64,000 bases of DNA, from positions 23,648 through 87,647 of the forward strand of contig JAKUQS010000006.1 in assembly GCA_022451485.1 (NCBI GenBank). Reading direction: 5' to 3'. Numbering within the stretch: the stretch's first letter is position 1; every line of letters begins with the position of its first letter. Below, piece after piece: positions 2,594 through 43,927 of this stretch. The notes below the pieces were generated by a model. It was given only the letters and a program-made list of their open reading frames with translations, had not been told where the DNA came from and made no database searches. This DNA is from Gammaproteobacteria bacterium. Its GTDB lineage: Bacteria; Pseudomonadota; Gammaproteobacteria; Arenicellales; UBA868. The position numbers and the translations under genes were made by a program.

Positions 2594-2594
2594 T

Positions 2595-4271: not shown

Positions 4272-4403
4272 ACCACCTTCTCGTAGGGGCACCTCTCAAG
4301 GACTAACCATCGATCAGTCATACCGGGTTTCGGCTTTTCTACAATACGTTTTTATTGCGCACAACTCGAAAGAAGAATTCTTAACGACAGCTTCTACAGC
4401 GGG

Positions 4404-18348: not shown

Positions 18349-18996
18349 ATGAACAGCAACGAAAACGACATTTATGAAAAATGCTCCTACGGCTCCGAAT
18401 CAATCGGATTTGGAGAGACACCGGGGGTCGCTGTGGTGGATTTTCAGTTAGGATTCACCGACCCCAACCATCAACTGGGTGGCTCGCCATTAGTCCAACG
18501 TGCAATCAGTAATTCCGTTCGATTATTGGACGTTGCCCGAGAGTGCGGTGTGCCCGTCGCCAATTGCTATACAGGATATAGCTCATCCCGTGACAAGCCT
18601 TACTGGAAGATTGCTGCCGTCCTAGAAGGCTTTATCGATGGTGATCACGCAACAGAATTTGATCCGCGAACCTACAACAGAGAATATGACGTTGCGATGC
18701 GAAAATCCGGTGCGTCCATGTTCTTCCAGACACCCGCAGCTGCGTTCTTTAACAAAGAAGGTGTGGACACGATTATTCTCGTGGGCTGTGTCACCTCAGG
18801 ATGTGTGCGGGCGAGTATAGTTGATAGCTTTCAGTGGGGTTTCCGAACGCTGGTACCTGAAGACTGTGTCGGCGATCAACATGAAAAGCCTCACTGGGAT
18901 AATTTGCGAGATGTCTCCCGACGATACTGTGATCTGACCACAGCAGATGCAATGATCGATGCAATTACAAACTGGCGCCGTAACAAGAATCAATAA
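18349..18996 (+). CDS. Isochorismatase-family cysteine hydrolase (N-carbamoylsarcosine-amidase-like)
   Basis: VAVVDFQLGFTD and ILVGCVTSGCVRASIVDSFQWGFRTLV. The conserved Cys sits in the G-C-V context seen in CSHase, pyrazinamidase and YcaC enzymes. Confidence 0.65.
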   Translation: MNSNENDIYEKCSYGSESIGFGETPGVAVVDFQLGFTDPNHQLGGSPLVQRAISNSVRLLDVARECGVPVANCYTGYSSSRDKPYWKIAAVLEGFIDGDHATEFDPRTYNREYDVAMRKSGASMFFQTPAAAFFNKEGVDTIILVGCVTSGCVRASIVDSFQWGFRTLVPEDCVGDQHEKPHWDNLRDVSRRYCDLTTADAMIDAITNWRRNKNQ

Positions 18997-21423: not shown

Positions 21424-21441
21424 ATATCGCGACGCTTAAAC

Positions 21442-23334
21442 ATGCCAGCACAACTGATACAAAACAACACGAAACCGTTTCAGTCTGTCACTGTTGATCC
21501 CATTACGTTAGACATCATCGAAAATGCTTTACGTAATGCGCGGACAGAAATGGACGCAGTACTCTTTAGAACTGCCATGTCACCCGGTATACGCGAACAA
21601 CACGATGCCTTCCCAATGATTGCTAACCAGGAAGGGAAAATGGTCGTCGGTCAGTTCGGATCATTTTTCTGGGGGTTCCAGCAAGGTTACGACGGCACCA
21701 TCGAAGAAGGCGACATTTTCCTAACTAATGATCCGTACACCTGTAATGGTGCCATCAGCCATCTGAACGATTGGTTGATGATGATGCCTATTTATATTGA
21801 TGGACGGATAGTCGCGTGGGCTGCAATGTTCGGACACATGACCGACATCGGAGGAAAAGTTCCAGGCAGCCTACCGACCGACGCTGCGCAAATATTTGAA
21901 GAAGGCATTCAAATCCCACCGGTCAAAATCTATCGCAAGGGGGAACTCAACAAAGAAATACTGGAAATGATTCTTCGGAATTGTCGACTCCCAGAATGGA
22001 ATCGCTCAGATTTCAATGCGGTAGTAGCAGCGCTTCGACTGGCTGAACGACGTATCGTTGAAATGGTCGAACGCTTTGGAGTCGACCCGCTGATCTCCGC
22101 GATGCAGGAGATGCTAGATCGAAACAAACGGGCCATGGGCTCCATTCTTAACATGGTGATCCCGGAAACAAAGCAACACTTTGTTGACTATATCGATGAT
22201 GACGGGATGGGCATGGGCCCCTATAAAATCGAATGCACGATGTGGCGTGAAGGCGAAATCGTTATTTTTGATTTCGCTGGAACTGACCCGCAGTCCATCA
22301 GTTCAGTCAATTTCCTCTTAAACGAGGAGATGTTCAAAATGTTCCTGGGCGCATTTTTTATCAATCTTTTTGACCCACAGATACTGTTTAATGATGGCTT
22401 TTATGATCTTGTCGAAGTCAGAATTCCTCGTGGATCAATACTTAAACCCATCCGGCCTGCGGCATTAAGCTCACGGACCCATATGCTAGCCCGCATTTTT
22501 GACATTATGAGCGGTCTGCTCGGTCAAAGTTCACCAGACGCCTTGTGTGCTGCCGGTTTTTCTGACAGCCCGCACTTTATGTACTCGGGTTATGACAAAG
22601 AAGGTGAATGGTATCAGCTCTATCAGATTGGATTCGGCGGAGTCCCCGGACGGCCTGCCGGCGATGGCCCAGACGGCCATTCACTTTGGCCAGCCTTTAC
22701 CAACGTACCCAATGAGTTCCTAGAAGCATACTTCCCGTTACGCATTGTTCAATATCAAACCATTATTGATAGTGGCGGTGCCGGACTACATCGGGGGGGT
22801 AATGGTTTGTCCATGGGTTATCAATTTCTTGAACCCGGGGAAATCTCAATCCATGATGATCGTTGGCTTACCCACCCTTGGGGTGTTAATGGTGGGCGTC
22901 CAGGGAAACGCAGTACCAAACTGATGGTGCGCAACACGGGTGAATCGGAATGGATGTCGTCTAAATGCGATCGAGTTAAAGTGTCACCTGGCGATACCCT
23001 TTACTTCAACACTTGGGGTGGTGGTGGTTGGGGTGACCCGCTTGAACGTGATCCTGCAACAGTCGCATTAGATGTCCGAAGGCGATTAGTTTCTCCCGAA
23101 GGCGCAAAACGCTATGGCGTTGTTATCACCGACGACAATAAAGTTAATGACAATGCTACCGCTGAGTTACGTCGCCAACTTTCATCGTCACGAGGGAAGG
23201 TTGAGTTATTTGACTTTGGTGGCAGCGTAGAGGAATTGAAGGCCAGGTGTCTGTCAGATACTCATCTGCAGCCACCTACGACGCCAGTCTTTCAAAAATG
23301 GATGACCTTATCGGCCAGCGACAGTAAAACCTAG
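21442..23334 (+). CDS. hyuB: Hydantoinase B/oxoprolinase family subunit (pair 2)
   Basis: DPITLDIIENALRNARTEMDAVLFRTAMSPGIRE plus the NDPYTCNGAISHLNDW variant motif. Starts 18 nt after the hyuA stop. Confidence 0.8.
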   Translation: MPAQLIQNNTKPFQSVTVDPITLDIIENALRNARTEMDAVLFRTAMSPGIREQHDAFPMIANQEGKMVVGQFGSFFWGFQQGYDGTIEEGDIFLTNDPYTCNGAISHLNDWLMMMPIYIDGRIVAWAAMFGHMTDIGGKVPGSLPTDAAQIFEEGIQIPPVKIYRKGELNKEILEMILRNCRLPEWNRSDFNAVVAALRLAERRIVEMVERFGVDPLISAMQEMLDRNKRAMGSILNMVIPETKQHFVDYIDDDGMGMGPYKIECTMWREGEIVIFDFAGTDPQSISSVNFLLNEEMFKMFLGAFFINLFDPQILFNDGFYDLVEVRIPRGSILKPIRPAALSSRTHMLARIFDIMSGLLGQSSPDALCAAGFSDSPHFMYSGYDKEGEWYQLYQIGFGGVPGRPAGDGPDGHSLWPAFTNVPNEFLEAYFPLRIVQYQTIIDSGGAGLHRGGNGLSMGYQFLEPGEISIHDDRWLTHPWGVNGGRPGKRSTKLMVRNTGESEWMSSKCDRVKVSPGDTLYFNTWGGGGWGDPLERDPATVALDVRRRLVSPEGAKRYGVVITDDNKVNDNATAELRRQLSSSRGKVELFDFGGSVEELKARCLSDTHLQPPTTPVFQKWMTLSASDSKT

Positions 23335-23352: not shown

Positions 23353-24330
23353 TCAGGCTTTCAACAAGCGAAGCATTGACGCGGCGTCACTCACGCGGAC
23401 ATCAAACCCTGCCTCAACGTTCATGTGGATGATGACTCCCCTTTCAACATACATGGCATAACGCCGGGAGCGCATACCGAGTCCGGACCCCCTCAAATCC
23501 AGTGTTAGGCCCATCCCTCTAGTAAAGCACCCACTCCCATCTGCCAACATTGAAAGCTTGTCCGAGATGTTAGTCGCCCGCGCCCACGCATCCATTACAT
23601 AGGCATCGTTCACGGCAATACATACGACATGATCGACGCCGGTGGCGCACATTTCCGCTGCTGCAGCTATATACCCTGGTAGGTGCTCGCGATTACATAT
23701 AGGTGTAAACGCACCGGGCACTCCGCAAACCACCACTCGTTTTTCTGCAAACCATTCGCCAGAACCGAACGTCAATGAAGTGCCGAATTGTATTTGTTGA
23801 AGCGGCGCATCTGGAACACAATCACCAATTAATCGCCTCGCAGAGAAATAACTTATCAACCCTTCCAGTGCACCCTCAAAGTCATCTGAATTGAACCACT
23901 TCACCAGATCTCCCGCCGGCCCTAGAATCCAAAACACCGCTGGACTTTCAACCGGATCGTGCCCCGAAATACCTCTGAACATTCGGGAAACTGAGTCGTC
24001 AGGATCGAACAACACCTCAATGACACTATCAAGGCGTTCCGACAACTCCTGATTAACTACGAACCCTGCTTGAATGATGACAACCACTCGCGCGTTTCGC
24101 GAACCCAATCGAGAAACAAGCCCTGCCAATTTGTTAACTCTTGCGAGATCCCGGCGTAATGCACCAAAGGTGATGCAACAGAAGACAACATGCTGGCCTG
24201 CAAAATCCTCTGATCGGACAGACAGACCATAATGATTCCGCAAGCAAAACGGTTTGATCTTTTTCACAACTTTGTCGCTACGCAAAACACGTGCATCCTG
24301 CGCACCGCTACTCAGAGGAGTTCGATGCAC
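23353..24330 (-). CDS. Prx5-type peroxiredoxin domain, C-terminal ~165 aa, preceded in-frame by a ~160-aa thioredoxin-fold-like region
   Basis: C-terminal VVCGVPGAFTPICNREHLPGY...VVCIAVNDAYVMDAWA matches the PRDX5/redoxin active-site region. The N-terminal half (GQHVVFCCITFGALRRD...) looks like a second degenerate AhpC/TSA-like domain. The true start is uncertain. Confidence 0.6.
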   Translation of the reverse strand: MHRTPLSSGAQDARVLRSDKVVKKIKPFCLRNHYGLSVRSEDFAGQHVVFCCITFGALRRDLARVNKLAGLVSRLGSRNARVVVIIQAGFVVNQELSERLDSVIEVLFDPDDSVSRMFRGISGHDPVESPAVFWILGPAGDLVKWFNSDDFEGALEGLISYFSARRLIGDCVPDAPLQQIQFGTSLTFGSGEWFAEKRVVVCGVPGAFTPICNREHLPGYIAAAAEMCATGVDHVVCIAVNDAYVMDAWARATNISDKLSMLADGSGCFTRGMGLTLDLRGSGLGMRSRRYAMYVERGVIIHMNVEAGFDVRVSDAASMLRLLKA

Positions 24331-24752
24331 CGTGTAAGCGCGTCCCGAACAGCCGCTTCACATGCCTCCCGTTCCACACTCATCTCTCCATCGTCGGCGA
24401 GGGCTGGCATGTTATTGGAACGTCGCATCAATGGGGCTCGACCAAACTGACTTTTTCGAATGCCAAAGGCAGGCAATTCCAAACGCACTAACACTAGTAT
24501 CTCGTCACCCTCAACGCGACGATCTCTAATTTCATGCCGCCACTTCTCCCCATAATGTTGTTCTAACCATTGAATGGGATCATCCAAGTGATCTCGGGTT
24601 TCTTCGGTTAGCCGAACTACCTTTACTTCGGCACCTTTACCATGGGGATCTGCGCGTGGAGACTCAATATTGACGCTCGCATAGAGACTTTCTAGCTGCT
24701 CTCGATTCGCATCCAGCAGTTCAGAGAAAGTATTTCCAGAATTTGAGCTCAT
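24312..24752 (-). CDS. Hypothetical protein whose C-terminal ~80 aa form a domain also found fused to two HyuB proteins in this window
   Basis: YGEKWRHEIRDRRVEGDEILVLVRLELPAFGIRKSQFGRA...EREACEAAVRDALTRCIELL aligns with residues ~60-135 of the HyuB at 28326 and with the last ~79 aa of the HyuB at 39554. Track ORF starts at TTG 24767 (overlapping the upstream hydrolase stop). ATG at 24752 is the alternative start. Confidence 0.5.
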   Translation of the reverse strand: MSSNSGNTFSELLDANREQLESLYASVNIESPRADPHGKGAEVKVVRLTEETRDHLDDPIQWLEQHYGEKWRHEIRDRRVEGDEILVLVRLELPAFGIRKSQFGRAPLMRRSNNMPALADDGEMSVEREACEAAVRDALTRCIELL

Positions 24753-24763
24753 GCGCGCTCTCT

Positions 24764-25486
24764 TCAAAAATCAACACGCGTTGGCAATGTTCCTTGCCAC
24801 CATTGCCGGAATTCGTTGTCAGCGCGGCCTTCCATTCCCCCAGCTACCACGAGTGCCTCGAGATGTTCTTGTATCTCCTGTTCAACCTTAACGTCACAGT
24901 ATTTCGAATCCATGTCAAAGAGATTGGCGTGATGGGGACCCTCGGCACGATCACCAACACCCTCTCGGCAAACAATAGTCCGAAAGCCGTATTGTAAGGA
25001 ATCAACTGCAGAGGCCCTCACACACCCACTAGTGGTCGCCCCGGTGATAATGACAGTATCGACACCCTGCCCATGAAAATAACGATCCAATTCGGTACCA
25101 AAAAATGCACTAGCGTACTTCTTAATGATGACCTCATCACCTTTTACGGGAGCAATTCTCGAATCAATTTCTACCCACTTAGAGCCTTTAACAAGCAATG
25201 ACAATGCCGGAATCTTCTCTATGAATATGCCCGCGTCATTAAAGTCTGGGGCATAAGCTACCGTTGTGTAGACCACCGGGAAACATCCTTTTCTGAATGC
25301 CGCCAGTAATCGAGCGGTAACGGCAACCTGATCATCAAAATTCCCGCCCAATGGTGATGTTGGATCGGTAAATCCGTTGCTGAAATCGACGATTAATAAT
25401 GCCGGTTTCTCTCCAAAGCCAGACCTACTGCCTAATCCTTTCTCTGCGTAGTCAGCACGGGTTGGTTCTTCCCAATCGTGTTTCAT
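24764..25486 (-). CDS. Isochorismatase-family cysteine hydrolase (paralog of 18349-18996)
   Basis: ALLIVDFSNGFTD and IITGATTSGCVRASAVDSLQYGFRTIV are closely parallel to the 18349 gene. ATG at 25486 (MKHDWEE) is preferred, which removes the overlap with the upstream membrane-protein gene. Confidence 0.65.
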   Translation of the reverse strand: MKHDWEEPTRADYAEKGLGSRSGFGEKPALLIVDFSNGFTDPTSPLGGNFDDQVAVTARLLAAFRKGCFPVVYTTVAYAPDFNDAGIFIEKIPALSLLVKGSKWVEIDSRIAPVKGDEVIIKKYASAFFGTELDRYFHGQGVDTVIITGATTSGCVRASAVDSLQYGFRTIVCREGVGDRAEGPHHANLFDMDSKYCDVKVEQEIQEHLEALVVAGGMEGRADNEFRQWWQGTLPTRVDF

Positions 25487-25512
25487 GGATAACCCAGTTA
25501 TTGAACAATGTC

Positions 25513-26058
25513 TTAACGACGTCCGACCACTCCGGGGGGCGTCCAACCGCGGCGCCAACCCACTCTGTAAGCCCGAACTACTCGGTGCAGCAAATAAAAC
25601 AAAATCGCCATTAACATCAAAACAAACACAGACAGCAAGCGACTCCCGAACACGGCACTGATGATCTGACCATCATTCATTAGGTGCTCGCTCAGCATTT
25701 CAACAGCCTGAATAGTCGCCCCGGCACACAAGATGACAGCAGCCAAAATGGCTATCTGCAGGGTATCGAAAACCAGTTCTTGCGCACTTGTTTCTGAAAA
25801 CTGGTCAAATATATTCTTTTTAAATGACTGCCGATGGGAGATTGCAAAACTAATGATCGCAACCACTGATGCAAACCAGAAGAGAATATTGGAAAAATGG
25901 ATTCTTGGGATATGCTCCATTAAATACTGCTCTACCGGTTGGTAAAACAGTAAAAAGAGAACAATAACGACAACAATACCCAATCCAATCCAGGATCCGG
26001 GCCGTTGCCACCGGTTTTGTAAGGATTCCATCGCTGATCCATACTCCAGAGGTTCCAC
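25513..26058 (-). CDS. Small integral membrane protein (about 4 TM), unknown function
   Basis: Hydrophobic segments IGLGIVVVIVLFLLF, FWFASVVAIISFAI, LQIAILAAVILCAGATIQAV and LLSVFVLMLMAILFYLL. GTG start with AAGAGG 6 nt upstream. It shares an A-x-L-x-AGA-x-x-QAV motif with the protein at 37903-38370. Confidence 0.5.
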   Translation of the reverse strand: MEPLEYGSAMESLQNRWQRPGSWIGLGIVVVIVLFLLFYQPVEQYLMEHIPRIHFSNILFWFASVVAIISFAISHRQSFKKNIFDQFSETSAQELVFDTLQIAILAAVILCAGATIQAVEMLSEHLMNDGQIISAVFGSRLLSVFVLMLMAILFYLLHRVVRAYRVGWRRGWTPPGVVGRR

Positions 26059-26265: not shown

Positions 26266-28329
26266 ATGTCTGCCCGCCTAGGGATTGATGTTGGAGGGAC
26301 GTTTACGAACTTATCCCTTCTGGATGAGCGTTCAGGGAACATATATGCGGCAAAGATTCCGTCGACACTTGGCGATCCCACGTCAAGGATCTTTTCTGGA
26401 CTGGATGAACTCCTCGAAATCAGCGACGTGTCGGCCGCAGACATCGCGACGGTTGTTAACAGCACGTCGTTACCCTCGGCGGTCGTTGCTGAACGAAATG
26501 GCTCGAAAGTCGCTCTACTTACCACTCAAGGCTTTGAACACATACTTCTTCTAGGAGGGGTATCGGAGGATTCTGCCTCATCCAATCCCCATACGGCCAT
26601 CCAGGCAGAACCACTGGCGGATCTTGCGCTGACGCGCGGTATTCCGGAACGTATGTCATCCGACGGACAAATCCTACAGCCACTGGACGACTCGGTTGCG
26701 TCGGCTCTGATCCAGGAGATTATTCACCTAGGGGCGGAACATATAGCCGTATCACTACTTCATTCCTACGCTAATCCTTTACACGAACGCATTCTCCGTG
26801 ACCTGATATCAAACATTGCTCCGGATTTACCCGTGACACTATCGAGCGAATTACGACGGGTCTTTCATGAGTTTGAGCGCACGTCTCTCGCAGTGATGAA
26901 CGCCTATGTTCAGCACAGCATGATCACCCATTTAAAAAGTCTAGGGGACAAATTCGCAGACCTGTCTGCACCCCCGCATATATTTGTAGCACGATCGGAT
27001 GGCGGGCTCATGGGTTTAGAGCGCGCGCAACGCACTCCGATCTTCGCTGCGCTGTCCAGTTCTGCATGCGCCGCAGGGGCCGCCCACAGCATTGCCTCTT
27101 CCGCTAACTGTGGCGATACGATCGCGTTAGACTGGGGAGGAAACACAACAGAAATTACACTGCTCCATCAGACTCTACGGCCACCTTTACGAGACGGATC
27201 GCTCGGTCCCTATTGCCTTGGACTTCCAACACTGGGCACGCGACACATTGGAGGCGGCGCAGGCTCTGTTATTGATATCCCAATAACAGGAAAGATTCGT
27301 ATAAAGAGCGACACCTATAATGGCCCTGGTCCGGCGTGTTACGGACTTGGCGGCACCGTCGCAACACTAACCGATGCCAATGTGATCTTGGGTCGACTAC
27401 CCTGCGAATTCCTGGCCGGGCGTATTCCAATCGATATCGAGGCGGCCGAGACAGCGGTGTCCGTCGCGGGAAAAGCGCTTGGGATGAATCCTGTAGAGGC
27501 AGCCCAAGCGATAATTGATGTTGCGAACGAGAAAGTTTACGGCGCCATACGTCAGCTCATGTCAGAACGACATTCGGATGACAAAGAATTCAACTTGATT
27601 GCGTTTGGGGGCGCTGGCCCAATGCACGCGAACGCCATAGGAATCCTCGGAAATATGTTCCCTGTTGTAATACCAGCCCAACCAGGCATGGTATCGGCTC
27701 ACGGCGCCCTATTCGCATCACAACGCCATGAGCTGGCCCAGACCATACTCAAGCCGGTTACTCATATAACCGGACAACTGCTCGATGATGCACTGGACAA
27801 GCTACAAACTCACGTCAGTACACAATTGCAAGAAGATGGATCAACTAACGACCAGTACACATTCCTGGCAGAGGCTGATCTTCGTTACTGTGGCGATAGC
27901 AGCGAGATTACACTCCCCTTAAATGTTGTCGACCCAAGTGCGGACCTTTCTCAACTAGAAGCACAGTTTATGCGGGCCCATCAGAACTTGTGCGGATTTG
28001 AGATGGATTTACCAGTTGAGATCGTCAACTTGCGAATCATCGGGTATACACAATCTCAAGTAACGACATCAAACGCCAAACATCAAGCCCGAAGGTCAGA
28101 ATCCACCCCACCCAATCAATGCCGAACCTATTTTGATGGGAGTTTCCTCGACACCAAGGTCTATGAGCGCGCAGATTTGATGCCCGATGAGTCCGTTTCG
28201 GGCCCGGCTGTAATCCTCCAATACGATGCCACCACCCTAATTCACCCAGGCCATGTCGCCCATGTTACTCCCGAGGGCACGCTTTTGATTAAACCTCAAA
28301 CACCGACGGATAACGCGACACTATCGTGA
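26266..28329 (+). CDS. hyuA: Divergent hydantoinase/oxoprolinase A-type subunit (pair 3)
   Basis: LGIDVGGTFTNLSLLDE and overall collinearity with HyuA. The otherwise invariant HGTTVATN segment is replaced by NSTSLPSAVVAERNGSKV. AAGGAGA RBS precedes the ATG at 26266. Confidence 0.7.
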   Translation: MSARLGIDVGGTFTNLSLLDERSGNIYAAKIPSTLGDPTSRIFSGLDELLEISDVSAADIATVVNSTSLPSAVVAERNGSKVALLTTQGFEHILLLGGVSEDSASSNPHTAIQAEPLADLALTRGIPERMSSDGQILQPLDDSVASALIQEIIHLGAEHIAVSLLHSYANPLHERILRDLISNIAPDLPVTLSSELRRVFHEFERTSLAVMNAYVQHSMITHLKSLGDKFADLSAPPHIFVARSDGGLMGLERAQRTPIFAALSSSACAAGAAHSIASSANCGDTIALDWGGNTTEITLLHQTLRPPLRDGSLGPYCLGLPTLGTRHIGGGAGSVIDIPITGKIRIKSDTYNGPGPACYGLGGTVATLTDANVILGRLPCEFLAGRIPIDIEAAETAVSVAGKALGMNPVEAAQAIIDVANEKVYGAIRQLMSERHSDDKEFNLIAFGGAGPMHANAIGILGNMFPVVIPAQPGMVSAHGALFASQRHELAQTILKPVTHITGQLLDDALDKLQTHVSTQLQEDGSTNDQYTFLAEADLRYCGDSSEITLPLNVVDPSADLSQLEAQFMRAHQNLCGFEMDLPVEIVNLRIIGYTQSQVTTSNAKHQARRSESTPPNQCRTYFDGSFLDTKVYERADLMPDESVSGPAVILQYDATTLIHPGHVAHVTPEGTLLIKPQTPTDNATLS

Positions 28330-30617
28330 AGAAACCCACCCTTTCCCTGGATGAACTCGCGGCCGCCAATCAAAGCGAGTTTGATCAATTATTTGCAACA
28401 AGGATGGCGCTCAGCCCCCCGATCATCACCGATGGCGTTGCTCAAGCGCCTATACCAGCCCACCAAATAGCAAACGATACTGACAATGATGCGCCTTCTG
28501 TCGGACCACATATTGCTACCTTGCTGACAAACACTTACGCCAATGGCTGGTCATATGAAATTGTTGAACACGAGGTGGGGCCAAGAGACGTCCGAGTACT
28601 TTGTCGTCTAACAGCGATGGACCAAACTCGAATGCAGTTTGGCACGGCCGTTAACGATGGAAATATCGGAATCGCACTTCAACGAGCAACGGATGATGCG
28701 CTCGCCCGTTGTCATGCTGATCTGGCCCCAGAGACGCACGCTGACTTTGTCTCTGCCCACGGACATCAACGAACACACAAGGTAGCCGGGCCAACCAGCA
28801 CGCTAAGCCAAAGCGAGCAGATCTCCAAAGCTATAAAAGAAAATACCCGCGCTGGAGACGACATTGAAATCTCGCTGCCTCATATTGTGGAGACTGCGTT
28901 GACGTGCGCACGACGAGAAATGGACACTCTTCTTTTTGGTAGAGCCATGTCCTCTGGAATCCGCCTCCAGCGGGACGCCGGCACCCTGATCGCGGATCCC
29001 AACGGGTGTTTGCTGGTTGGGAATACCGAAACCGATTTACCCAAACTGTTACGGGAATCCATGTCTGATCTCGCTCCTGGGGATGTCATCCTACACAGTG
29101 ACCCATATAGCGCCGGGGGGGCTGGCGGGCACTTGAACGACTGGTGCATCGTAACTCCCATCTTTTTAGAGAGCCGACTTGTGGGATTTAGCTCGGCCTA
29201 CGGACATATGAGTGATGTCGGCAGTGAAGCACTTGGCAGTAACCCGGCGACCGCACATTCTATTTTTGGCGAAGGCCTGCGTATTCCACCCATTAAGCTA
29301 TACAAGAACGGCATCCTAAATCACGAATCGCTTGCAATTCTGACGAGCAATACCCGGACACCCGTCGCAAACCATCACGATCTACTGGCACTGGTAGCGG
29401 CCACAAGAATAGGTGAAGCCCGAGTGCTTCAATTGTGCGCGCGCTTTGGTGAACACAGCTATATCCGGGCAAGTGAAATACTGCAAGAACAGACACATCA
29501 GATGATGCGCAAAATCATATCCAAATACTTTCCCATTGAACCCCAATCATTTCACGACTACATAGATGATGACGGCTGTGAACACGGACCTTTTCGACTA
29601 AAAGTGACCATCTGGCGTGAAGGTGACAAAGCTTATGTAGATTGGACGGGCACGGATGCCCAAGCCCTCGGACCTATCAATCTTCATCTTCAGGAATCAA
29701 CTTTACAGAGTCTTGTGGGTCGCTACCTACTTCGTCGTGTCGACCCGGAGATGGAACCATGCGGCAGCGGCAACTCGTTATTTGACATCACACTTCCCAA
29801 AGGCTCACTCATTAAAGCCGCGTTTCCTGCAGCCTTGGGTAGCCGTAGACACGTGCTAGGTCGGTTACGGGATGTTTTAAATGGTGTATTCAGCCACTCA
29901 GCCGATTCGCTCGTCACAGCAGCAGGCGAATCCAGTCAGAGCCTTTTTACTTTTGTACCAGGTGATGATGCTCGAGGGCTACCGCTGTCTGAACCCCACT
30001 TTGGCGCCCTGCCAGCGCGCGCAGCTTCAGACGGAATTGATGGACCGAGCTGGGCACACAGCAGGAAACTATATTCTGTTGAGGCCATGGAACATCGGAC
30101 ACCAGTAAGAGTTGACTCCCGACGGTGTATTCCAGATTCCGGTGGTGCGGGAACCTTTCGGGGTGGTAACAGCGTAGCAACGATCTACCAATTTACAGCG
30201 CCCGGAGCGCTGTCGATTCAGGATGATCGCCAGAATGGCAGGCCGTGGGGTGTTTTTGGAGGCCAAGCTGGGTCTTGTTCTGAAAAGTCTTTAACCACGA
30301 AAAACGGTGAACAGCGAACAATCGCGGCTAAAGCGGACCGTGTATCGGTTTACCCAGGTGATAAACTGCATTATGTGGAGCCCGGTACTGGAGGCTGGGG
30401 AGATCCGCTGAGACGGTCCGTGGAAGCTGTCCAAAAAGACGTCGCACGCGGATTAACCACCATTGTGTCAGCCAAAAACGACTATGGGGTAATCATCGAT
30501 TCAGACACAGGGGCGGTTCAGGCGGAGGAAACCGACGCATTACGTCGACGTGTTATGGGTACACCTGGAAAACGCTTACATTTCGACTTTGGAAAGAAAG
30601 CAGCTCCCGAACCCTAA
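28326..30617 (+). CDS. hyuB: Hydantoinase B/oxoprolinase family subunit with ~190-aa N-terminal extension carrying the recurrent ~80-aa domain (pair 3)
   Basis: HyuB core begins near IVETALTCARREMDTLLFGRAMSSGIR and includes the SDPYSAGGAGGHLNDW motif. N-terminal residues ~55-135 (NGWSYEIVEHEVGPRDVRVLCRLTAMDQTRMQFGTAVNDGNIGIALQRATDDALARCHADL) are homologous to the protein at 24312-24752. GTG start overlaps the hyuA stop (GTGA). Confidence 0.75.
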   Translation: MKKPTLSLDELAAANQSEFDQLFATRMALSPPIITDGVAQAPIPAHQIANDTDNDAPSVGPHIATLLTNTYANGWSYEIVEHEVGPRDVRVLCRLTAMDQTRMQFGTAVNDGNIGIALQRATDDALARCHADLAPETHADFVSAHGHQRTHKVAGPTSTLSQSEQISKAIKENTRAGDDIEISLPHIVETALTCARREMDTLLFGRAMSSGIRLQRDAGTLIADPNGCLLVGNTETDLPKLLRESMSDLAPGDVILHSDPYSAGGAGGHLNDWCIVTPIFLESRLVGFSSAYGHMSDVGSEALGSNPATAHSIFGEGLRIPPIKLYKNGILNHESLAILTSNTRTPVANHHDLLALVAATRIGEARVLQLCARFGEHSYIRASEILQEQTHQMMRKIISKYFPIEPQSFHDYIDDDGCEHGPFRLKVTIWREGDKAYVDWTGTDAQALGPINLHLQESTLQSLVGRYLLRRVDPEMEPCGSGNSLFDITLPKGSLIKAAFPAALGSRRHVLGRLRDVLNGVFSHSADSLVTAAGESSQSLFTFVPGDDARGLPLSEPHFGALPARAASDGIDGPSWAHSRKLYSVEAMEHRTPVRVDSRRCIPDSGGAGTFRGGNSVATIYQFTAPGALSIQDDRQNGRPWGVFGGQAGSCSEKSLTTKNGEQRTIAAKADRVSVYPGDKLHYVEPGTGGWGDPLRRSVEAVQKDVARGLTTIVSAKNDYGVIIDSDTGAVQAEETDALRRRVMGTPGKRLHFDFGKKAAPEP

Positions 30618-30718: not shown

Positions 30719-33283
30719 ATGTCCATCGAAAGCCTAATCACTATCGTCCTAATAGCAATTGTTGCGATCGCTATTTTCTATATCATTTCTATCTGGGTCT
30801 ACAAACGGGCACCAGCCAATATGGGCTTCATCCGTACCGGTTTCGGTGGCACACGTGTCTGCCTCGGGCAAGGCGCCATTGTTCTACCTGTTTTCCACGA
30901 AGTCTCATGGGTGTCGCTGGAAACTATTAAATTGATCGTCGGTCGCGCGCGTGATCAGGCCATTTTGACGCACGACAATATCCGCATTGACGTCGTTGCT
31001 GAACTCTATACTCACGTTGGGCACACTGCCGACTCCCTTCTCATTGCAAGCAGAAGTCTGGGCCAAAAGACATTCGATCCCGACACGGTTCGTAGTCTCC
31101 TTGAAGCAAAAATCATCAGCGCATTGCGGAGCTACGCGGCGACAAAAGATCTAGCGGAACTACATGAAAATCGAGACACCTTCGCACGCGACATAAAATC
31201 ACAGGTTATCGAAAGCTTCAGCGCAAATGGTCTTGTCCTGGAAGAAGTCACCATTGTCTCGATGGAGCAAACGGGAAAAGAGTACTTCAAGACCGATAAT
31301 GTCTTCGATGCAGAAGGCCTACGAATCATTACCGAGATCACATCACGGGCGAAACGGGACGTCCACGAAACCGAAAAACGAACCAGTGTGGCGATTCGAC
31401 AGAAGGAATTAGAGACTCAACTCGAATTGCTCGAAATCGAACGTCAAGAGGCGTTTGCTCGTTCGGTACAAGATCGGGCCATCTCCAACGAACAAGCCCT
31501 TCATGTCGGTGAAAAGCAACGTTACGTCCTCGATCAAAAACTATCTGTTGAACAAAAGGAGATCGAAAACGAACGTCTGGTTGAACAACTCAGAACTGAG
31601 CGTGATGTAGCCATCATCGAAGAGTCACAAAAACGTGAATCTTCAGAAATTGAGAAAGGCAAACTGATCGAGCAACAACGACGAGATCGTGAGATCGTAC
31701 TCATTGAAAAAGCGAAACAGGAGGAATTAGCCGAAATCACACGCAAACTCGATCTTGACAAAGCAGAAAAGGATCGGCAGATAGAGCTCGTTGAGAAAAC
31801 GAAACAGGAGGAGCTCGCTCAAATCACACGTGAGGTGTCATTGGATGCGGCCCAAAAGGATAAACAAATACGATTGATCGCCAACGAACAAGAGCGGGAA
31901 GAAGCCGAAATTGAACGCCAGACGGTCATCACCGCTCGCGAGGAAAGCGCCCGCCTTGAACGGAGTAAAGTTGCAGAACAGGCGGAAATCGCCATCAGTC
32001 AGGAAAAACTCAAAACCCGATTAGCTCTTCTCGATGTTAATAAACAGGATGCCCTTTCCACCTCCTCTCAGGAGAAAGACGTTGCGGAAGCTCAGGCTAC
32101 CCTGTTGAGTGAAAAACAGCGATTCCTGCTCGAAGAGAAATGGAAAGTTGAACAAGAGGAAATCAACAAAGAGTTGGAACTCGAGAAAGCCCAAATCGCG
32201 AAAGATACGTCGATTCTAAGTGAGTCCCAAAAACGGGAGACGGCAGAGGTCCAACGTTCCCTGGCGCGGCAAAGTGAGGAGCGAAATCGGGAAATCGCTT
32301 TATCCGCAAAAGATGCTGACCTTGAATTGGCGGCTGCAAAACGCCTAGAGGCCACGGCATCCCGACAGCAGGCCGAACATAATGCCGACTCAGTCCGACA
32401 TATCGCTGACGCGGAACGTCAAAAGATCATCGACCTGATAGAGGCTGAAAATAACGCGGATACACGCCGTGTAGAAGAGGAAAATAACGCCGAAATCACG
32501 CGAATGCATATGCTTGCGCAGGCCGATGCGAGGAAAGAAGCGGCTGAGCGTGAAGCCACAGCAACTCTCACCCGCGCCCAGGCGACCAGTGATGCACAAC
32601 AAATCTCCGCCATTGGGATCGAGAAGGAAGCAGCCGCTAAAGGGCGGGCCGAAATGGAGATCGAACAACTGAGAGTTGCGAACACACAACGCATGCTGGA
32701 AGCAGAAGCAAGTGGAATTGAGGCAAAAGCAGATGCTTTGAAGAAATATAACGATGCGGCTACCTTTCTAGAACTATCGAAAATGCATATAGAAGCTGAA
32801 CGCGATGTTCGTAGTGATCAGGCTAAAGCGATGGGTAATGCGCTACAGGGCGCCCAAATAAGAATGTATGGTGGCAGTGATGACGGAACCATAGACAACA
32901 TCCGCGGCCTGTTTACCTCCGGTTTTGGGATTGGAGAGGCACTTGAAGGCCTCGCTCAGTCCCTACCCGAAGGGCTACGCCAGCGATTTGCTCAGAATGG
33001 CGTACGCGGCCTTTTTGGAACGCCAAATGGCGCAGGTCGCTTCCAGGAAGCAGTCGCTGCTGTGGGCACATTACTCCAGGGCACTTTAAAGACAAAACGT
33101 GAGCGCGAAGCCACAACTTTTCAGGACGCGGTGCAAATATTGGAAGAGGCCGCAGGCGCAGACACAGCACAGTTAGAAGCTGTTGCAACGCTTTCCCAAT
33201 TTAACCAAGACGGCGTTTTTAACGAAGTCCCATTTGAAACTGTATGGAGTCTGGTCCTCGCCACATCAAAGGCGGTAAATTAA
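30719..33283 (+). CDS. Flotillin / SPFH (band-7) family protein with extended coiled-coil region
   Basis: N-terminal TM (IVLIAIVAIAIFYIISIWVY), SPFH core (GFIRTGFGGTRVCLGQGAIVLPVFHEVSWVSLETIKL...) and about 450 aa of E/A/Q/K/R-rich heptad-like sequence. At 854 aa it is well beyond the typical ~500-550 aa of YqiK/flotillin homologs. Confidence 0.75.
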   Translation: MSIESLITIVLIAIVAIAIFYIISIWVYKRAPANMGFIRTGFGGTRVCLGQGAIVLPVFHEVSWVSLETIKLIVGRARDQAILTHDNIRIDVVAELYTHVGHTADSLLIASRSLGQKTFDPDTVRSLLEAKIISALRSYAATKDLAELHENRDTFARDIKSQVIESFSANGLVLEEVTIVSMEQTGKEYFKTDNVFDAEGLRIITEITSRAKRDVHETEKRTSVAIRQKELETQLELLEIERQEAFARSVQDRAISNEQALHVGEKQRYVLDQKLSVEQKEIENERLVEQLRTERDVAIIEESQKRESSEIEKGKLIEQQRRDREIVLIEKAKQEELAEITRKLDLDKAEKDRQIELVEKTKQEELAQITREVSLDAAQKDKQIRLIANEQEREEAEIERQTVITAREESARLERSKVAEQAEIAISQEKLKTRLALLDVNKQDALSTSSQEKDVAEAQATLLSEKQRFLLEEKWKVEQEEINKELELEKAQIAKDTSILSESQKRETAEVQRSLARQSEERNREIALSAKDADLELAAAKRLEATASRQQAEHNADSVRHIADAERQKIIDLIEAENNADTRRVEEENNAEITRMHMLAQADARKEAAEREATATLTRAQATSDAQQISAIGIEKEAAAKGRAEMEIEQLRVANTQRMLEAEASGIEAKADALKKYNDAATFLELSKMHIEAERDVRSDQAKAMGNALQGAQIRMYGGSDDGTIDNIRGLFTSGFGIGEALEGLAQSLPEGLRQRFAQNGVRGLFGTPNGAGRFQEAVAAVGTLLQGTLKTKREREATTFQDAVQILEEAAGADTAQLEAVATLSQFNQDGVFNEVPFETVWSLVLATSKAVN
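31714..31887 (+). repeat. In-frame tandem duplication, 2 x 87 nt, inside the flotillin coiled-coil
   Basis: Protein units IEKAKQEELAEITRKLDLDKAEKDRQIELV and EKTKQEELAQITREVSLDAAQKDKQIRLI. Nucleotide units aaacaggaggaattagccgaaatcacacg.. and aaacaggaggagctcgctcaaatcacacg.. are about 75% identical. Confidence 0.6.
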
Positions 33284-37902: not shown

Positions 37903-38370
37903 CTATGCCTTAACCGGTCGAATTAATTTCAACAACCAAAAGATGATACAAAAAACACCGGTAATCACTACTAATGCAATGATCGTTCCTACTTGTTTAC
38001 CAAATCCCCCATCAAAAGTGTAGCCTGTCTGCAGCAGATAAACACAGGCATTTTGAACCGCCTGTAATGCCGCTCCTGCAGACAAAAGAACCGCTGTGAA
38101 GGTTGATCCCCGTAACGACGTTAACACCATCGACTCCACACTGCCCTGTCCCCTGATATACGTTTTATACGCGCTCCAGTGAAACGCACAAAACCCTAGA
38201 AGCCCAATGATCACTGTCACCCAGAAAACACTGTTTTGAAAGGTAAATCCATTCAAAACAATATTTACCAAAGCCTCAAACGGAGGAAAAAAGTAGAGGA
38301 AGGTTAACGCCAATATGAGAAGGAGAAACCCTACCAGAGTCCAAAACCACTGCCAGCCCGTCATTACCAC
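37903..38370 (-). CDS. Small integral membrane protein (about 4 TM), paralog of 25513-26058
   Basis: 155 aa. TAVLLSAGAALQAVQNACVYLL parallels LQIAILAAVILCAGATIQAVEMLSEHL in the 25513 protein, and both have a similar hydrophobic C-terminal helix. Confidence 0.5.
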   Translation of the reverse strand: MVMTGWQWFWTLVGFLLLILALTFLYFFPPFEALVNIVLNGFTFQNSVFWVTVIIGLLGFCAFHWSAYKTYIRGQGSVESMVLTSLRGSTFTAVLLSAGAALQAVQNACVYLLQTGYTFDGGFGKQVGTIIALVVITGVFCIIFWLLKLIRPVKA

Positions 38371-39553: not shown

Positions 39554-41680
39554 TCATGACTTCTCGGCAATCAGTCGTTCCACGCACCGTTGGAAGCTCA
39601 TGTCACTCGCTGCCTGAAATGCAGCCCCTAACGATGCCCCAGGATCAGTTACCGCCGAGCCGGTCTCAGCAACATAGGAATGATTTGCTCGTAATTCGCC
39701 TCGGACTTCTGCAATGTTTCCTCGTTGAGAGTAGTAGACCACCTCAAAACTCCATTGGTCCCCTACAGTTGCACGTATTGCAGTAAGGGATTCCGACTTA
39801 TCGACCTTCGACAGAATCGCCTCACTAATGGCACTTGATGGGGGAGCAGGAGCTTGATCACGAAGTTCTTCGTTGCCGACAGGGGCCGGCGTTACCGAAA
39901 TCGCAACGTTGCTCGGTGCGTTTTCCATTTGCGACCGCAGACTATTTGTCGCCGTCTCGTCCACCTCTTCATTGACAACATCAATCACCACGCCATAGGC
40001 ATTACGCGCATGTTCAACAGTACAAAAATCATCTAAGACATCCCCGAGAACGTCCTCTGCGGGGCGTTCAAGTGGATTTCCGTAACCTCCCCCACATGGC
40101 GCATAAAATGCGTGAACATCGCCCGACTTAACTCGCAAACCAGAGAATTTTGCGGGCATACTCTGGACATCGCTCGGGTCATCAACATTAAAGACTTCGA
40201 CCTTACCAGTGGCTCCCGACCAGCCACCAAAAATACCCCATGGAACATCGTGGTGTCTTTCATTTTCATGCGTAATAAAACCATCTGTGAGAACACGTTG
40301 TGACTTGACCACGCCAATGCCCCCTCGATACCTTCCCGCCCCAGGCAGCACGTCGTCACGTAATTCGTAACGATCACAGATCATAGGAAGATGCATGCCA
40401 AGATCTTCCAATGGATTATTTCGTGTATTCGCCATCAAATTGTCGATACTGTCAGGACCATCCGATTGCGGACGACCTCCGTAGGCGCCCTCATTGACTT
40501 CCAGGAATACCCAGTAATCTCCAGACGGTCGAACCCCTGAATACGCCGCGAAAGACAAAGAGGCAGAACTACCAGCAATGATCTCGTTGGGTAGCACAGG
40601 TGCGAGTGCTTTATAAATCAGATCAATTGCTCGATTCACTTGAGTAAAACGGGCTTCTGCAGCTGCAGGATATTCTGGGTTATAGATCGATCCCTTTGGC
40701 GCTATCACCTCGATGGGTCGAAATGAACCTTCATTCGAGGGGACAGTAATCTCAGAAGTTTCTGCGTCCAACAGTAAAGAACGAATAGCGCAGTAACAGC
40801 CCACTTTGGTGGAGCCTTCAAAGGGCACATTGAAACCGGTTTCAACCTGAGCCGAGGACCCCGTCAGATCTACTTGTATAGAATCACCCATAATTCGAAC
40901 ACACACCTTAATGGGTAACCGGACATCTCGATTTTTCCCGTCATCATCGAGAAAACCTTCTGCGCGGTACTCGCCATCTGGAATCTCAGCGATTCGTTGC
41001 CGCACCACTCGTTCCGTATAATCCATCAATTGGCGAGTCGCCGAGATTATCGTGTCCTTACCATAACGATCCATCAATTCTTGAAAACGGCGAACACCCA
41101 GCCGGGCTGAAGCTATTTGGGCCTCAATGTCACTTTGCAATTGTGTTGCAGCTCGGCTGTTCCGACCTAAAAACTCCCAAAGCCCTTCGTTGCGTGAGCC
41201 TTTCTCATAAAGTTTGGTGCCCGCAAATAGCATTCCCTCTGCAAAAACATCAGGAATGTCAATAATCAAGCCCGGGGTGGCCGCTCCGATATCAAGATGA
41301 TGTGCCGTATTAGCGCCGAAACCCACCAGTTCACCGCCATAAAAACAAGGAATAACTATTCCTATATCGGGTGAATGACTGGCTCCAAGGTAAGGATGAT
41401 TGTGAATCACAACATCACCTTCATTCCACTCTCCGCCTTGAAGGGATTCCTCAATCCCTCTCAAATATCCCGGCAGTGAACCAATATGAAGCGGCGTCGA
41501 TTCTGACTCACATAACGTGTTGAAATCAGTATCAAACAGCCCCGCTCCCAGATCTTGCGATTCGCGAATGATTGACGAAAACGACATCCGATACAGGATG
41601 TGACCCATCTCTTCAGCTATGGTGTCAAGTGCGCCACTGATGACTTGCAGCGTAATCGGATCTAATTCTTGCGAGGACAT
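39554..41680 (-). CDS. hyuB: Hydantoinase B/oxoprolinase family subunit with ~130-aa C-terminal extension carrying the recurrent ~80-aa domain (pair 4)
   Basis: DPITLQVISGALDTIAEEMGHILYRMSFSSIIRESQD, the HNHPYLGASHSPD variant motif and GGGYGNPLERP. After the usual C-terminus (NAYGVVIDV) comes a Pro/Ala/Ser-rich linker, then GDQWSFEVVYYSQRGNIAEVRGELRANHSYVAETGSAV...ASLGAAFQAASDMSFQRCVERL, which is homologous to the 24312 protein. Confidence 0.8.
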   Translation of the reverse strand: MSSQELDPITLQVISGALDTIAEEMGHILYRMSFSSIIRESQDLGAGLFDTDFNTLCESESTPLHIGSLPGYLRGIEESLQGGEWNEGDVVIHNHPYLGASHSPDIGIVIPCFYGGELVGFGANTAHHLDIGAATPGLIIDIPDVFAEGMLFAGTKLYEKGSRNEGLWEFLGRNSRAATQLQSDIEAQIASARLGVRRFQELMDRYGKDTIISATRQLMDYTERVVRQRIAEIPDGEYRAEGFLDDDGKNRDVRLPIKVCVRIMGDSIQVDLTGSSAQVETGFNVPFEGSTKVGCYCAIRSLLLDAETSEITVPSNEGSFRPIEVIAPKGSIYNPEYPAAAEARFTQVNRAIDLIYKALAPVLPNEIIAGSSASLSFAAYSGVRPSGDYWVFLEVNEGAYGGRPQSDGPDSIDNLMANTRNNPLEDLGMHLPMICDRYELRDDVLPGAGRYRGGIGVVKSQRVLTDGFITHENERHHDVPWGIFGGWSGATGKVEVFNVDDPSDVQSMPAKFSGLRVKSGDVHAFYAPCGGGYGNPLERPAEDVLGDVLDDFCTVEHARNAYGVVIDVVNEEVDETATNSLRSQMENAPSNVAISVTPAPVGNEELRDQAPAPPSSAISEAILSKVDKSESLTAIRATVGDQWSFEVVYYSQRGNIAEVRGELRANHSYVAETGSAVTDPGASLGAAFQAASDMSFQRCVERLIAEKS

Positions 41681-41699
41681 AAGTTATAAATTCATTTTC

Positions 41700-43781
41700 T
41701 CAATGGGAGAGCCGGCTTTCGATGGTCAGGTTTCCAAATTGACCTACATTGGCGGTGTAATCGGGTGGAATCAAAATCGTTGAATTGTGTTGGACCACCA
41801 CCGCCGGTCCAGAAATTACATGACCACCAAACAATTGACTCCGATCATAACGTGGTGTTGGGTAAGAATTTCCGTCATCAAACACTGTCTCTTGAGTGTA
41901 CAGAATTGCTGTTGCTACCGACTCTTTACCGGCTGTTGCAACTTCCGGGACCCGCAGTGGCGTTACATGTTGAACGCCTATCACTCGTAGCGTAATGAGT
42001 TCCACCTCACCGTCTCTAAATGCATAGCCATAGTCCAGCTCATGCTGCTGATGGAAACGATCAATGACTTCCACCATGGAAGATTCTGTTACCTGATCCG
42101 CTTCAATAAGAGCGCGTAATTCGAACCCTTGCCCGTGATATCGACATTCCGCGATTCTCTGAAAGTGCTGTTCAGAAACCGGAACACCATCACCTTCAAG
42201 ATCTTTTCGACACGCCTCTAAAAGTTCTGACAAAACACGATTGATTTTCGTCAGGTTTTCGTGCGTGATGTCGGATAAGGAAGCGATCACTGACCGTGCG
42301 TGCTCATACTGCATATCAGTTTGCAATAAACCCATAGCCGCAGTAATACCGGGAGCGACTGGAACGATGACATTCTTTGCCGACACCGCCTCCGCAAGGG
42401 CAACACCGTGCAGCGGACCTGCCCCACCGAACGGGATTAGGGAATAGTCCCTTGGGTCAACACCACGGGCGACTGAATTAGATCTAATGGCAAGCGCCAT
42501 ATTAGAGTTTACCAACCGAATGATCCCTAAAGCTGCATCTGTCGTTGAGATCCCTAGTGGCCGCGCTATCTTGTTCTCGATCGCCTGATCCGCCAGATCT
42601 TTATCTAAGGGAAGATCTCCACCCAACATCTTATCCGGATCCAGCCGGCCCAAAGAAACCTGCGCATCTGTAACTGTTGGCTCAACGCCACCACGCCCAT
42701 AACACGCCGGCCCTGGGTCCGCACCGGCAGAACGCGGCCCAACATGAAACCCGCCGGCCGAATCGATATAGGCAATAGATCCTCCACCCGCCCCGATAGT
42801 AACCAGATCAATCATAGGAATTAATACAGGATGCCCACTGACATAGGTATCCCGTGGATTCATTATCTTGATTTGACCGTCTGTGATGGTGCTGATATCA
42901 GCAGATGTACCGCCGATATCTACGGTAATGATATTCTGGGTGTTACACGCTACTGCTTCCGACTTCCCACCGATGACACCGCCCGCTGGCCCAGACATCA
43001 GCATCGTCACAGCACGCTGAGAACAGGTCTCTACTGTTGCTATGCCGCCATTCGACTGAATAATTCGCAAATTGGCATTAAAGCCCTCGCGGTTAAGCTT
43101 ATCTTTTAAGTTATTGAGATAAAACGACGTTCTTGGTCCAACAAACCCGTTCATTGCCGCTGTCGAAAATCGTTCGTACTCACGTAAGACGTTCGCGACA
43201 TCAGAGGACGCACAAACAAAAGCGTCCGGCATTTCCTTTTCGACAATCGCTTTAGCACGCCGCTCGTGTGAATCATTTAGGAAAGAAAACATGAACCCGA
43301 TCACAACAGACCGAATGCCTCGTTTTTTGAACAAAGCCACCGCTTCGAGAATCTCATCCTCGTTAAGAGGTGTTTCAATATCACCGGTCGGTGGCCGAAT
43401 GCACTCGGTCACCGCAATACGGTTGCGCCGTTTTATCAGAGGCCGACTCTGCCACGGAACATCAAAGTGCAAAGAGAAGTTATAAGGCCGTTTATGCCGC
43501 CCGATATGTAAAATATCTCGAAAATTTCGCGTTGTAATCATTCCAACTTCCGCGCCATCATTCTCAAGCGTCACGTTGGTAGCAACGGTTGTTCCGTGTA
43601 CGATAAGGTCGATGTCACTCGGTTTAACATCCGCTTGCTCACAGAGCTCCCGCAAACCAACCAACACTCCATCCGACTGGTCGCTCGGAGTACTTGCCAC
43701 TTTGTGGAAATAAACTCCGTGATCAGCCTCCAGGACCAGATCCGTATTGGTTCCGCCTACATCTACGCCTACCCTAGCCAT
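41700..43781 (-). CDS. hyuA: Hydantoinase/oxoprolinase A-type subunit (pair 4)
   Basis: MARVGVDVGGTNTDLVLE, IVHGTTVATNVTLENDGAEVGMITTRNFRDILHIGR and DIGGTSADISTI. ATG at 43781 with AAGGA 8 nt upstream; the ORF-track start at 43784 is TTG. Confidence 0.85.
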   Translation of the reverse strand: MARVGVDVGGTNTDLVLEADHGVYFHKVASTPSDQSDGVLVGLRELCEQADVKPSDIDLIVHGTTVATNVTLENDGAEVGMITTRNFRDILHIGRHKRPYNFSLHFDVPWQSRPLIKRRNRIAVTECIRPPTGDIETPLNEDEILEAVALFKKRGIRSVVIGFMFSFLNDSHERRAKAIVEKEMPDAFVCASSDVANVLREYERFSTAAMNGFVGPRTSFYLNNLKDKLNREGFNANLRIIQSNGGIATVETCSQRAVTMLMSGPAGGVIGGKSEAVACNTQNIITVDIGGTSADISTITDGQIKIMNPRDTYVSGHPVLIPMIDLVTIGAGGGSIAYIDSAGGFHVGPRSAGADPGPACYGRGGVEPTVTDAQVSLGRLDPDKMLGGDLPLDKDLADQAIENKIARPLGISTTDAALGIIRLVNSNMALAIRSNSVARGVDPRDYSLIPFGGAGPLHGVALAEAVSAKNVIVPVAPGITAAMGLLQTDMQYEHARSVIASLSDITHENLTKINRVLSELLEACRKDLEGDGVPVSEQHFQRIAECRYHGQGFELRALIEADQVTESSMVEVIDRFHQQHELDYGYAFRDGEVELITLRVIGVQHVTPLRVPEVATAGKESVATAILYTQETVFDDGNSYPTPRYDRSQLFGGHVISGPAVVVQHNSTILIPPDYTANVGQFGNLTIESRLSH

Positions 43782-43927
43782 CAATCATCCTTGTTAGAAT
43801 TGATCCTTGTTCATGAAATATGTCAAACGCCCTACCAATAACCCTCTCTAACTCACTCGTCAAGTCATTCGCCGATGATTCTCCCTGAAACTGCAGTTCA
43901 ACCAGCAAAACACTTTACCCGATACCT

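Follow-up and report, generated by a model that had tools for sequence, protein, structure and literature searches.

Proteins of the Rad52 family are the single-stranded DNA (ssDNA)-annealing recombination proteins of eukaryotes, mitochondria and phages. N-methylhydantoinase and N-carbamoylsarcosine amidase catalyze consecutive steps in the breakdown of creatinine and N-methylhydantoin, and to our knowledge no Rad52-fold module is known in the characterised enzymes of this pathway. We analysed a 64,000-nucleotide stretch of a gammaproteobacterial contig (JAKUQS010000006.1, positions 23,648 to 87,647; hereafter the window) in which a hydantoinase subunit, HyuB-1, carries an N-terminal extension whose core belongs, in all likelihood, to the Rad52 superfamily. 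An earlier note on this DNA had read the core as Rad52-like and had called its attachment to a metabolic ATPase subunit, if real, unprecedented. Our literature search turned up no paper combining Rad52 with hydantoinase or oxoprolinase, and no Rad52-fold module in the literature on the pathway enzymes; the claim of novelty can be weighed within that search only.

In the core of the single-strand annealing proteins (SSAPs), helices α2 and α3 lie between the β3-β5 sheet and the β1-β2 hairpin. The DNA groove is floored by the two helices and bounded on its inner side by the sheet and on its outer side by the hairpin, which in Mgm101 wedges into the DNA; nearly the whole monomer, except for the hairpin and the C-lobe, takes part in the subunit interface (PMC13110880). 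The DNA site of human RAD52 consists of R55, Y65, K152, R153 and R156 (PMC4718542).

The N-terminal extension of HyuB-1 and its relationship to Rad52

HyuB-1 (763 aa; 28326..30617, plus strand) matched Pfam Hydantoinase_B (PF02538) from aa 187 to 694, over profile positions 7-519 of 519 (E 4.7e-109). Because the match begins at aa 187, the N-terminal extension measures about 186 aa, close to the ~190 aa given in the earlier note. HyuB-1 is a full-length Hydantoinase B/oxoprolinase member with an adjoining partner subunit, HyuA-1 (687 aa; 26266..28329, plus strand; Pfam Hydant_A_N, Hydantoinase_A and Hydant_A_C), and the GTG start of hyuB-1 overlaps the stop codon of hyuA-1 directly upstream. 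The extension begins with a helix motif, SLDELAAANQSEFDQLFATRM (aa 7-29; 28344..28412, plus strand), which is predicted with low confidence as a helix. It is followed by variable linker 1 (aa 30-58; 28413..28499, plus strand), predicted to be disordered with a predicted local distance difference test score (pLDDT) below 50, by the truncated Rad52-fold core (aa 59-141; 28500..28748, plus strand), and by variable linker 2 (aa 142-186; 28749..28883, plus strand), which leads to the Hydantoinase_B catalytic body. A genome scan with a single protein returned only two genomes, both of uncultured Gammaproteobacteria (L004 and L005), in which the region is fully syntenic and the orthologous extensions are 73% identical. 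Identity to these orthologues is 78% in the helix and 88% in the core, but 31% in linker 1 and 60-62% in linker 2. With helix and core conserved while the linkers diverge, the extension holds a genuine domain under selection, connected by rapidly evolving linkers.

The core is not confined to HyuB-1. A jackhmmer search of the six-frame translation of the window recovered two further copies, one in an open reading frame (ORF) at 24312-24767 on the minus strand and the other at the C-terminus of a second HyuB, HyuB-2. A profile of the three copies was then searched exhaustively against 1.84 billion representative proteins and matched 325 of them at E<=1e-3 and 42 at E<=1e-10. By these sequence matches the recurrence of the domain, which the earlier note had pointed out, is far beyond chance.

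To compare the domain with Rad52, we aligned 42 cores, either HyuB-fused or free-standing, leaving out canonical Rad52 proteins (A3), and set them against 39 canonical bacterial Rad52-like proteins (A4). By hhalign the two alignments matched with a probability of 99.8% (E 6e-28) over 82 columns, with ~30% identity to the consensus, and they have in common, in the same order, the motifs 'RLNeaFG..WSfEvv', 'vvVLg.Lt', 'QFG' and 'A..DALkkC'. All seven A4 members that were scanned in Pfam were assigned to PF04098 (Rad52_Rad22; E 1e-12 to 1e-16), and the A4 profile matched yeast Rad52 (8g3g, E 3.8e-7) and human RAD52 (1h2i, 1kn0 and 5xrz, E ~5e-6). Five of the 42 A3 members matched PF04098 directly at E<=0.01 and none matched another family; one of the family, the HyuB-fused fragment P0010, exceeded the PF04098 gathering score (23.3 vs. 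20.3 bits). An AlphaFold2 model with A3 as input had a pLDDT of 84.7, with the core above 90, and showed a helix (11-21), three strands (25-34, 38-47 and 50-59) and a second helix (64-83), corresponding to aa ~61-133 of HyuB-1. With only the three window sequences as input, the same core was obtained; in this model an N-terminal helix was predicted with low confidence, and the linker was disordered. In a Foldseek search of the PDB the best five matches of the model were all human RAD52 (E 2.4-3.9e-4), and a fold search of a viral library was led by phage Rad52/59/22 and Sak3 proteins. Homology and fold together make it very likely that the core is a genuine, truncated member of the Rad52/SSAP superfamily.

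The Rad52-like reading of the earlier note, which had suggested a profile comparison and a structure prediction as checks, is thus supported on both sides, the profile relationship being reached through bacterial members. Its residue pairing with human RAD52 was correct for the GW strand and one residue off in the last helix, where transitive alignment pairs A127, R128 and C129 of HyuB-1 with K152, R153 and A154, respectively.

Retained and lost parts of the Rad52 fold

The core comprises only α2-β3-β4-β5-α3 in Rad52 numbering; the β1-β2 hairpin and the C-terminal helices are absent. A3 aligned only to columns 49-134 of A4, from 'VI.RLNEAF' to 'KKCA', so that the Cys of the canonical 'KKC' is its last residue. 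P0010 covers positions 34-129 of 153 in PF04098. The equivalents of R55 and Y65 fall in the absent segment (R19 and Y29 of the A4 profile, respectively), and the place upstream of the core is taken by a disordered linker. In helix α3, the basic residues K152, R153 and R156 correspond in HyuB-1 to A127, R128 and A131. Among the 42 cores the K152 equivalent is Ala in 14 and Arg in 11, with other residues elsewhere, and the R156 equivalent is basic in five. The R153 equivalent, Arg or Lys in 28 of the 42, is the only position of the DNA site that is usually basic. W75 is invariant, C129 is found in 40 of the 42 cores and C93 in 22; C129, in α3, corresponds to a buried Cys next to R193 in Mgm101.

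With the hairpin gone and conservation lacking at the K152 and R156 positions, annealing-competent DNA binding is unlikely, and single-strand annealing has very probably been lost. The subunit-packing surfaces of the Rad52 fold, on the other hand, are retained in the core. We also considered net charge as a proxy for lost DNA binding, but it was uninformative since canonical cores are equally acidic on average.

Family members and their gene neighbourhoods

The domain occurs in three ways: fused to the N-terminus of HyuB, fused to its C-terminus (both through disordered linkers), and as a free-standing protein of ~150-180 aa. The best 150 of the 325 matches were sorted by simple motif rules, and one extra ankyrin-repeat false positive was set aside. 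The free-standing class (59 of 150; ~150-190 aa) has the same helix-linker-core layout, 15 matches are N-terminal and two are C-terminal HyuB fusions, 35 are core-only and mostly fragment-like, and 39 resemble canonical bacterial Rad52-like proteins of ~200-240 aa. The Rad52-fold domain thus defines an unannotated protein family of marine and soil Proteobacteria that takes in at least 111 of the best 150 matches, all of them called 'hypothetical' or bearing no name. Members with a named source come from metagenome-assembled genomes of Gammaproteobacteria, Alphaproteobacteria, Ruegeria and Rhodospirillaceae; they are labelled 'hypothetical' or 'uncharacterized', except for fused fragments that are named or Pfam-tagged for Hydantoinase B, and none bears a Rad52 Pfam tag. 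As single sequences the window copies drew no match in Pfam, NCBIfam, PHROGs or the sequences of the PDB, a word-indexed search with a single domain returned only one near-identical fragment, and a plasmid search for the domain gave no match. The contigs of P0026, P0073 and P0055 were too short for gene context. Most free-standing members (e.g., P0020, P0026 and L002 3122-3610) have a Gly-rich insertion of 20-35 residues, 'GSADGVAFS...', between β5 and α3, which is shortened in the free-standing copy of the window and does not occur in the fused forms.

The free-standing Rad52-fold protein of the window (24312..24767, minus strand; 146-151 aa) consists of an N-terminal helix, a linker and a core, as seen by jackhmmer and in the alignments, and has no match in Pfam, NCBIfam or PHROG. 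Its true start is likely the ATG at 24752; the near-identical protein P0002 begins with MSSNSG. The N-terminal helix motif is common to HyuB-1, this protein and other N-terminally fused HyuBs, and a hidden Markov model of the motif, built from 68 homologues, found only two sites in the window, in HyuB-1 and in the free-standing ORF (E ~1e-10). HyuB-2 (708 aa; 39554..41680, minus strand; Pfam Hydantoinase_B at aa 7-536) carries its core at aa ~628-708 (nt 39557-39799), within a jackhmmer match spanning aa ~615-708, and its partner HyuA-2 is encoded at 41700..43784 on the minus strand. The core subtype of HyuB-2 is also C-terminal in P0134 and L015, and it is N-terminal in P0073 and P0104, on the same kind of HyuB.

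Directly upstream of the free-standing gene lies a gene for an isochorismatase-family hydrolase resembling N-carbamoylsarcosine amidase (24764..25558, minus strand; Pfam Isochorismatase). Among proteins of solved structure its best relatives were two N-carbamoylsarcosine amidohydrolases (26st, E 3e-64; 1nba, E 1e-39). The free-standing gene either overlaps it by 4 nt or follows it after ~12 nt. A metagenome scan with the free-standing subtype gave 13 loci, and in all 13 the free-standing gene was directly downstream of an isochorismatase-family gene; the same adjacency was seen in L001-L007, L021 and L022. In loci with called genes the two are separated by ~12 nt at most or overlap. HyuAB with a fused copy was found within ~8 kb in four of the 13 loci (N-terminal in L010, L012 and L020, C-terminal in L015), and in L011 and L017 the contig breaks off at HyuA. 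Fused copies on a HyuB also lie within ~8 kb in L002-L007, which include the orthologous loci of the window, L004 and L005. The long-read contigs L002, L003, L006, L007, L021 and L022 show the same pattern, to which they add a conserved membrane protein and genes for an ABC transporter. For HyuB-1, N-methylhydantoinase (7hk5, E 8e-59) was the best relative of solved structure, and solved HyuB-type relatives align only from aa ~184 on. The best PDB relatives would fit the two consecutive enzymes of the pathway, but identity is moderate and the window holds six HyuAB pairs. These enzyme relatives and the ABC transporter of the clusters point to a small-molecule catabolism of the hydantoin or creatinine type as the probable setting.

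The six HyuA/HyuB pairs lie at 551-4292, 19051-23334, 26266-30617, 39554-43784, 44707-48583 and 55584-59307. Six paralogous pairs of ATP-dependent ring-opening enzymes per 64 kb is an unusual density, and several of them adjoin ABC transporters. The pair at 19051 is also preceded by an isochorismatase-family gene (18349-18996). Its HyuA (19051-21423, plus strand) has an N-terminal extension of ~108 aa, which starts with the helix-like stretch ITDWFDSELQRAKDEFSQL and continues in a long low-complexity stretch rich in Pro, Thr and Ser. We considered this start as a further copy of the N-terminal helix motif and rejected it; the likeness was by eye, and the motif model did not detect it.

Other genes accompany these clusters. 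A membrane protein of 181 aa without a known family (25513..26058, minus strand; no Pfam match) travels with the cluster, and homologues were found in L002-L007, L010-L012, L015, L017, L018 and L020. Further Pfam-less membrane proteins (37903-38370 and 38441-39493, both minus strand) accompany Rad52-fold/HyuAB clusters in many loci. The cluster membrane proteins may serve the system in transport or as anchors. The free-standing gene is followed directly, with a possible 19-nt overlap, by a gene for a redoxin/AhpC-TSA protein (23353-24330, minus strand; 325 aa), which has a C-terminal Redoxin domain and an N-terminal part of ~165 aa with a weaker second AhpC-TSA match; a two-domain redoxin neighbour was also seen in L004, L005, L018 and L019. 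hyuB-1 is followed by a gene for an SPFH/Band-7 protein (30719-33283, plus strand; 854 aa) with a very long coiled-coil-like region rich in Glu, Lys and Arg, and such a gene occupies the same position in L005, L021 and L022, where an ABC ATPase comes next.

In several loci of study ERZ250394xx-395xx, Rad52-fold genes beside hyuB were called separately (L002 7599-8321, L003 8001-8456, L006 8001-8585, L007 8001-8285, L021 9001-9567 and L022 9001-9555). The split genes of 184-188 aa between hyuA and hyuB in L021 and L022 were considered as Rosetta-stone evidence and rejected. They are probably frameshift artefacts, because the HyuB reading frame continues upstream without a stop and the sequence at the junction agrees with that of P0017, a fused homologue; the separate C-terminal ORFs of L002, L003, L006 and L007 are likewise probable long-read frameshift artefacts. 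Many database 'proteins' of ~150-200 aa may have arisen in the same way.

Proposed role, alternative explanations and comparison with known systems

As a whole, these observations are best explained by a Rad52 fold that was exapted from DNA annealing to protein-protein assembly and would now serve as a tethered module of a hydantoinase-amidase pathway; we give this explanation a probability of roughly one half. The anatomy is tether-like: disordered linkers that evolve fast connect a conserved helix and a conserved core, and the core can stand at either end of HyuB. How assembly would work is more tentative, and we hold the following mechanism to be plausible but somewhat doubtful. The retained surfaces of α2, the sheet and α3 would be those that make the side-by-side subunit contacts in the rings of the Rad52 family. 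Through them, the HyuB-tethered copy and the copy coexpressed with the amidase might associate with each other, self-associate, or dock the conserved N-terminal helix, and such association would bring two consecutive enzymes into one complex.

Several observations qualify the homology or weigh against this explanation. The three window copies individually stay below Pfam thresholds, and the A3 profile retrieved no RAD52 chain from PDB sequences. Direct hhalign to human RAD52, with a sequence that agreed with the RAD52 segments matched by A4, gave only a weak match of 25 columns across the GW strand (probability 13%). The A4 proteins were chosen as matches of the window profile, so that their hhalign score is partly expected; independent support for homology therefore comes from the Pfam assignment of the A4 proteins and from the fold search. 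Net charge does not separate the family from canonical Rad52 cores, and the basic R153 position and the topology, which resembles a double-stranded RNA-binding domain (dsRBD), leave some nucleic-acid binding possible. As for context, L008, L013 and L016, with 3-10 kb of flank, have the amidase-like and free-standing genes and no HyuAB nearby, and thus the free-standing protein may work with the amidase alone. L016 lies on a genome-sized contig (Ga0315336_1000001, 4.79 Mb) and has no HyuA or HyuB within 10 kb. Finally, three of the six HyuAB pairs in the window lack the domain, and only two HyuBs carry it; the domain is therefore dispensable for HyuAB function in general.

Other explanations must be considered. 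The module might still bind single-stranded nucleic acid and have a regulatory role, e.g., on its own mRNA, or a nucleic-acid-directed one. Its homology to ssDNA-annealing proteins and its α-β3-α topology are in keeping with this idea, as are the frequent Arg or Lys at the R153 position, which stands beside the conserved Cys like R193-C194 of Mgm101, and the Arg-rich β3-β4 turn 'ERRREGDE' of the free-standing subtype. However, the hairpin with the R55 and Y65 equivalents is wholly missing, conservation fails at the K152 and R156 positions, the window cores have net charges of -5, -4 and -2, and the genes around them encode transporters and catabolic enzymes, with none for nucleic-acid functions, which leaves this role unlikely. 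A special form of it, in which the modules bring the ATP-dependent hydantoinase and the amidase to oxidised bases of the hydantoin type, be it in DNA or in RNA, or link both enzymes to an RNA, seems to us very remote; if true, it would turn a plain catabolic pathway into a nucleic-acid-directed ring-opening machine, and the adjoining peroxiredoxin-like gene would fit an oxidative-damage context. We consider it equally improbable as nucleic-acid binding that the module is a ligand-, metal- or redox-sensing domain whose conserved cysteines control the hydantoinase or the amidase. The high conservation of C129 and the presence of C93 in about half of the cores would suit a sensor, and so would the two-domain redoxin gene that comes next after the free-standing one in the window and in L004, L005, L018 and L019, and the cobW-type metallochaperone gene in the cluster of one lineage. 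Yet the α3 Cys is inherited from canonical bacterial Rad52-like proteins ('KKC'), the equivalent cysteines of Mgm101 are buried core residues (PMC13110880), C93 is changed to Gly in the C-terminal subtype, and the redoxin and cobW neighbours are lineage-specific.

Two further possibilities question whether there is a functional Rad52 fold at all, and we consider both essentially excluded. That the extension is a relic without function, a piece of a Rad52-like gene from a prophage or the chromosome which was accidentally fused to hyuB and is decaying, could be read from its truncation relative to canonical Rad52-like proteins and from the abundance of canonical relatives in phages. This is most improbable in view of the contrast between core and adjoining linker across species (88% vs. 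31% identity), the hundreds of homologues in marine and soil samples, and the three conserved subtypes with fixed gene neighbourhoods. The earlier note had also allowed for an unrelated small α/β domain with a chance similarity to Rad52; such a domain could be dsRBD-like or HPF-like, and its resemblance a matter of chance or convergence. This is the least credible of all, since the profile-profile match to PF04098 members (E 6e-28) involves the same motifs in the same order, family members match PF04098 directly and not dsrm or any other family, and every leading structural match, in the PDB as well as in the viral library, is a Rad52-superfamily member.

With an exapted Rad52 fold as the preferred explanation, the module can be compared with known systems. 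It is homologous over ~82 columns to the bacterial and phage Rad52-like SSAPs (PF04098; ~200-240 aa, e.g., P0053 and P0081), with which it has in common the succession of a helix, three strands and a second helix as well as the motifs W-S-F-E-V, V-L-G/C-x-L, Q-F-G and A-x-D-A-L-x-[KR]-C. Unlike these SSAPs, the HyuB family lacks or has in degenerate form the hairpin segment 'PF..IKQR.G...L.YVEG' with the R55 and Y65 equivalents, the dibasic 'LKKC', and the subsequent 'FGVGL.LY' segment and C-terminal tail; canonical SSAPs are found in recombination modules, whereas the HyuB-family domain is found in metabolic operons. Sequence similarity to the N-terminal domain of eukaryotic RAD52 and to Mgm101 (5jrb, 8g3g and 9yi6) is detected via bacterial intermediates only, and the HyuB-family core has neither the hairpin nor the α4 helices nor the C-lobe of these proteins. 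The dsRBD is alike in its α-β3-α topology, but there is no dsrm family match and dsRBDs rank below Rad52-family structures. The core is very probably a minimal domain of the Rad52 superfamily, placed in a new architecture and outside recombination. If confirmed, it would clearly exemplify the exaptation of an SSAP fold to a role beyond nucleic-acid metabolism, and such a natural minimal core would help to tell which parts of the fold drive oligomerisation and which drive DNA binding.

On the enzyme side, the closest solved relatives, 7hk5 and 26st, would place the system near the N-methylhydantoinase and N-carbamoylsarcosine amidase pathway. If confirmed, the module would be an unrecognised third component for some of the HyuAB enzymes of the hydantoinase/oxoprolinase type and for the amidases that partner them, and the creatinine- or hydantoin-type pathways annotated in marine metagenomes may work as organised complexes. 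A parallel, as an analogy of role only, is offered by acetone carboxylase, in which the γ subunit is a small extra polypeptide associated with an ATP-dependent HyuAB-type core.

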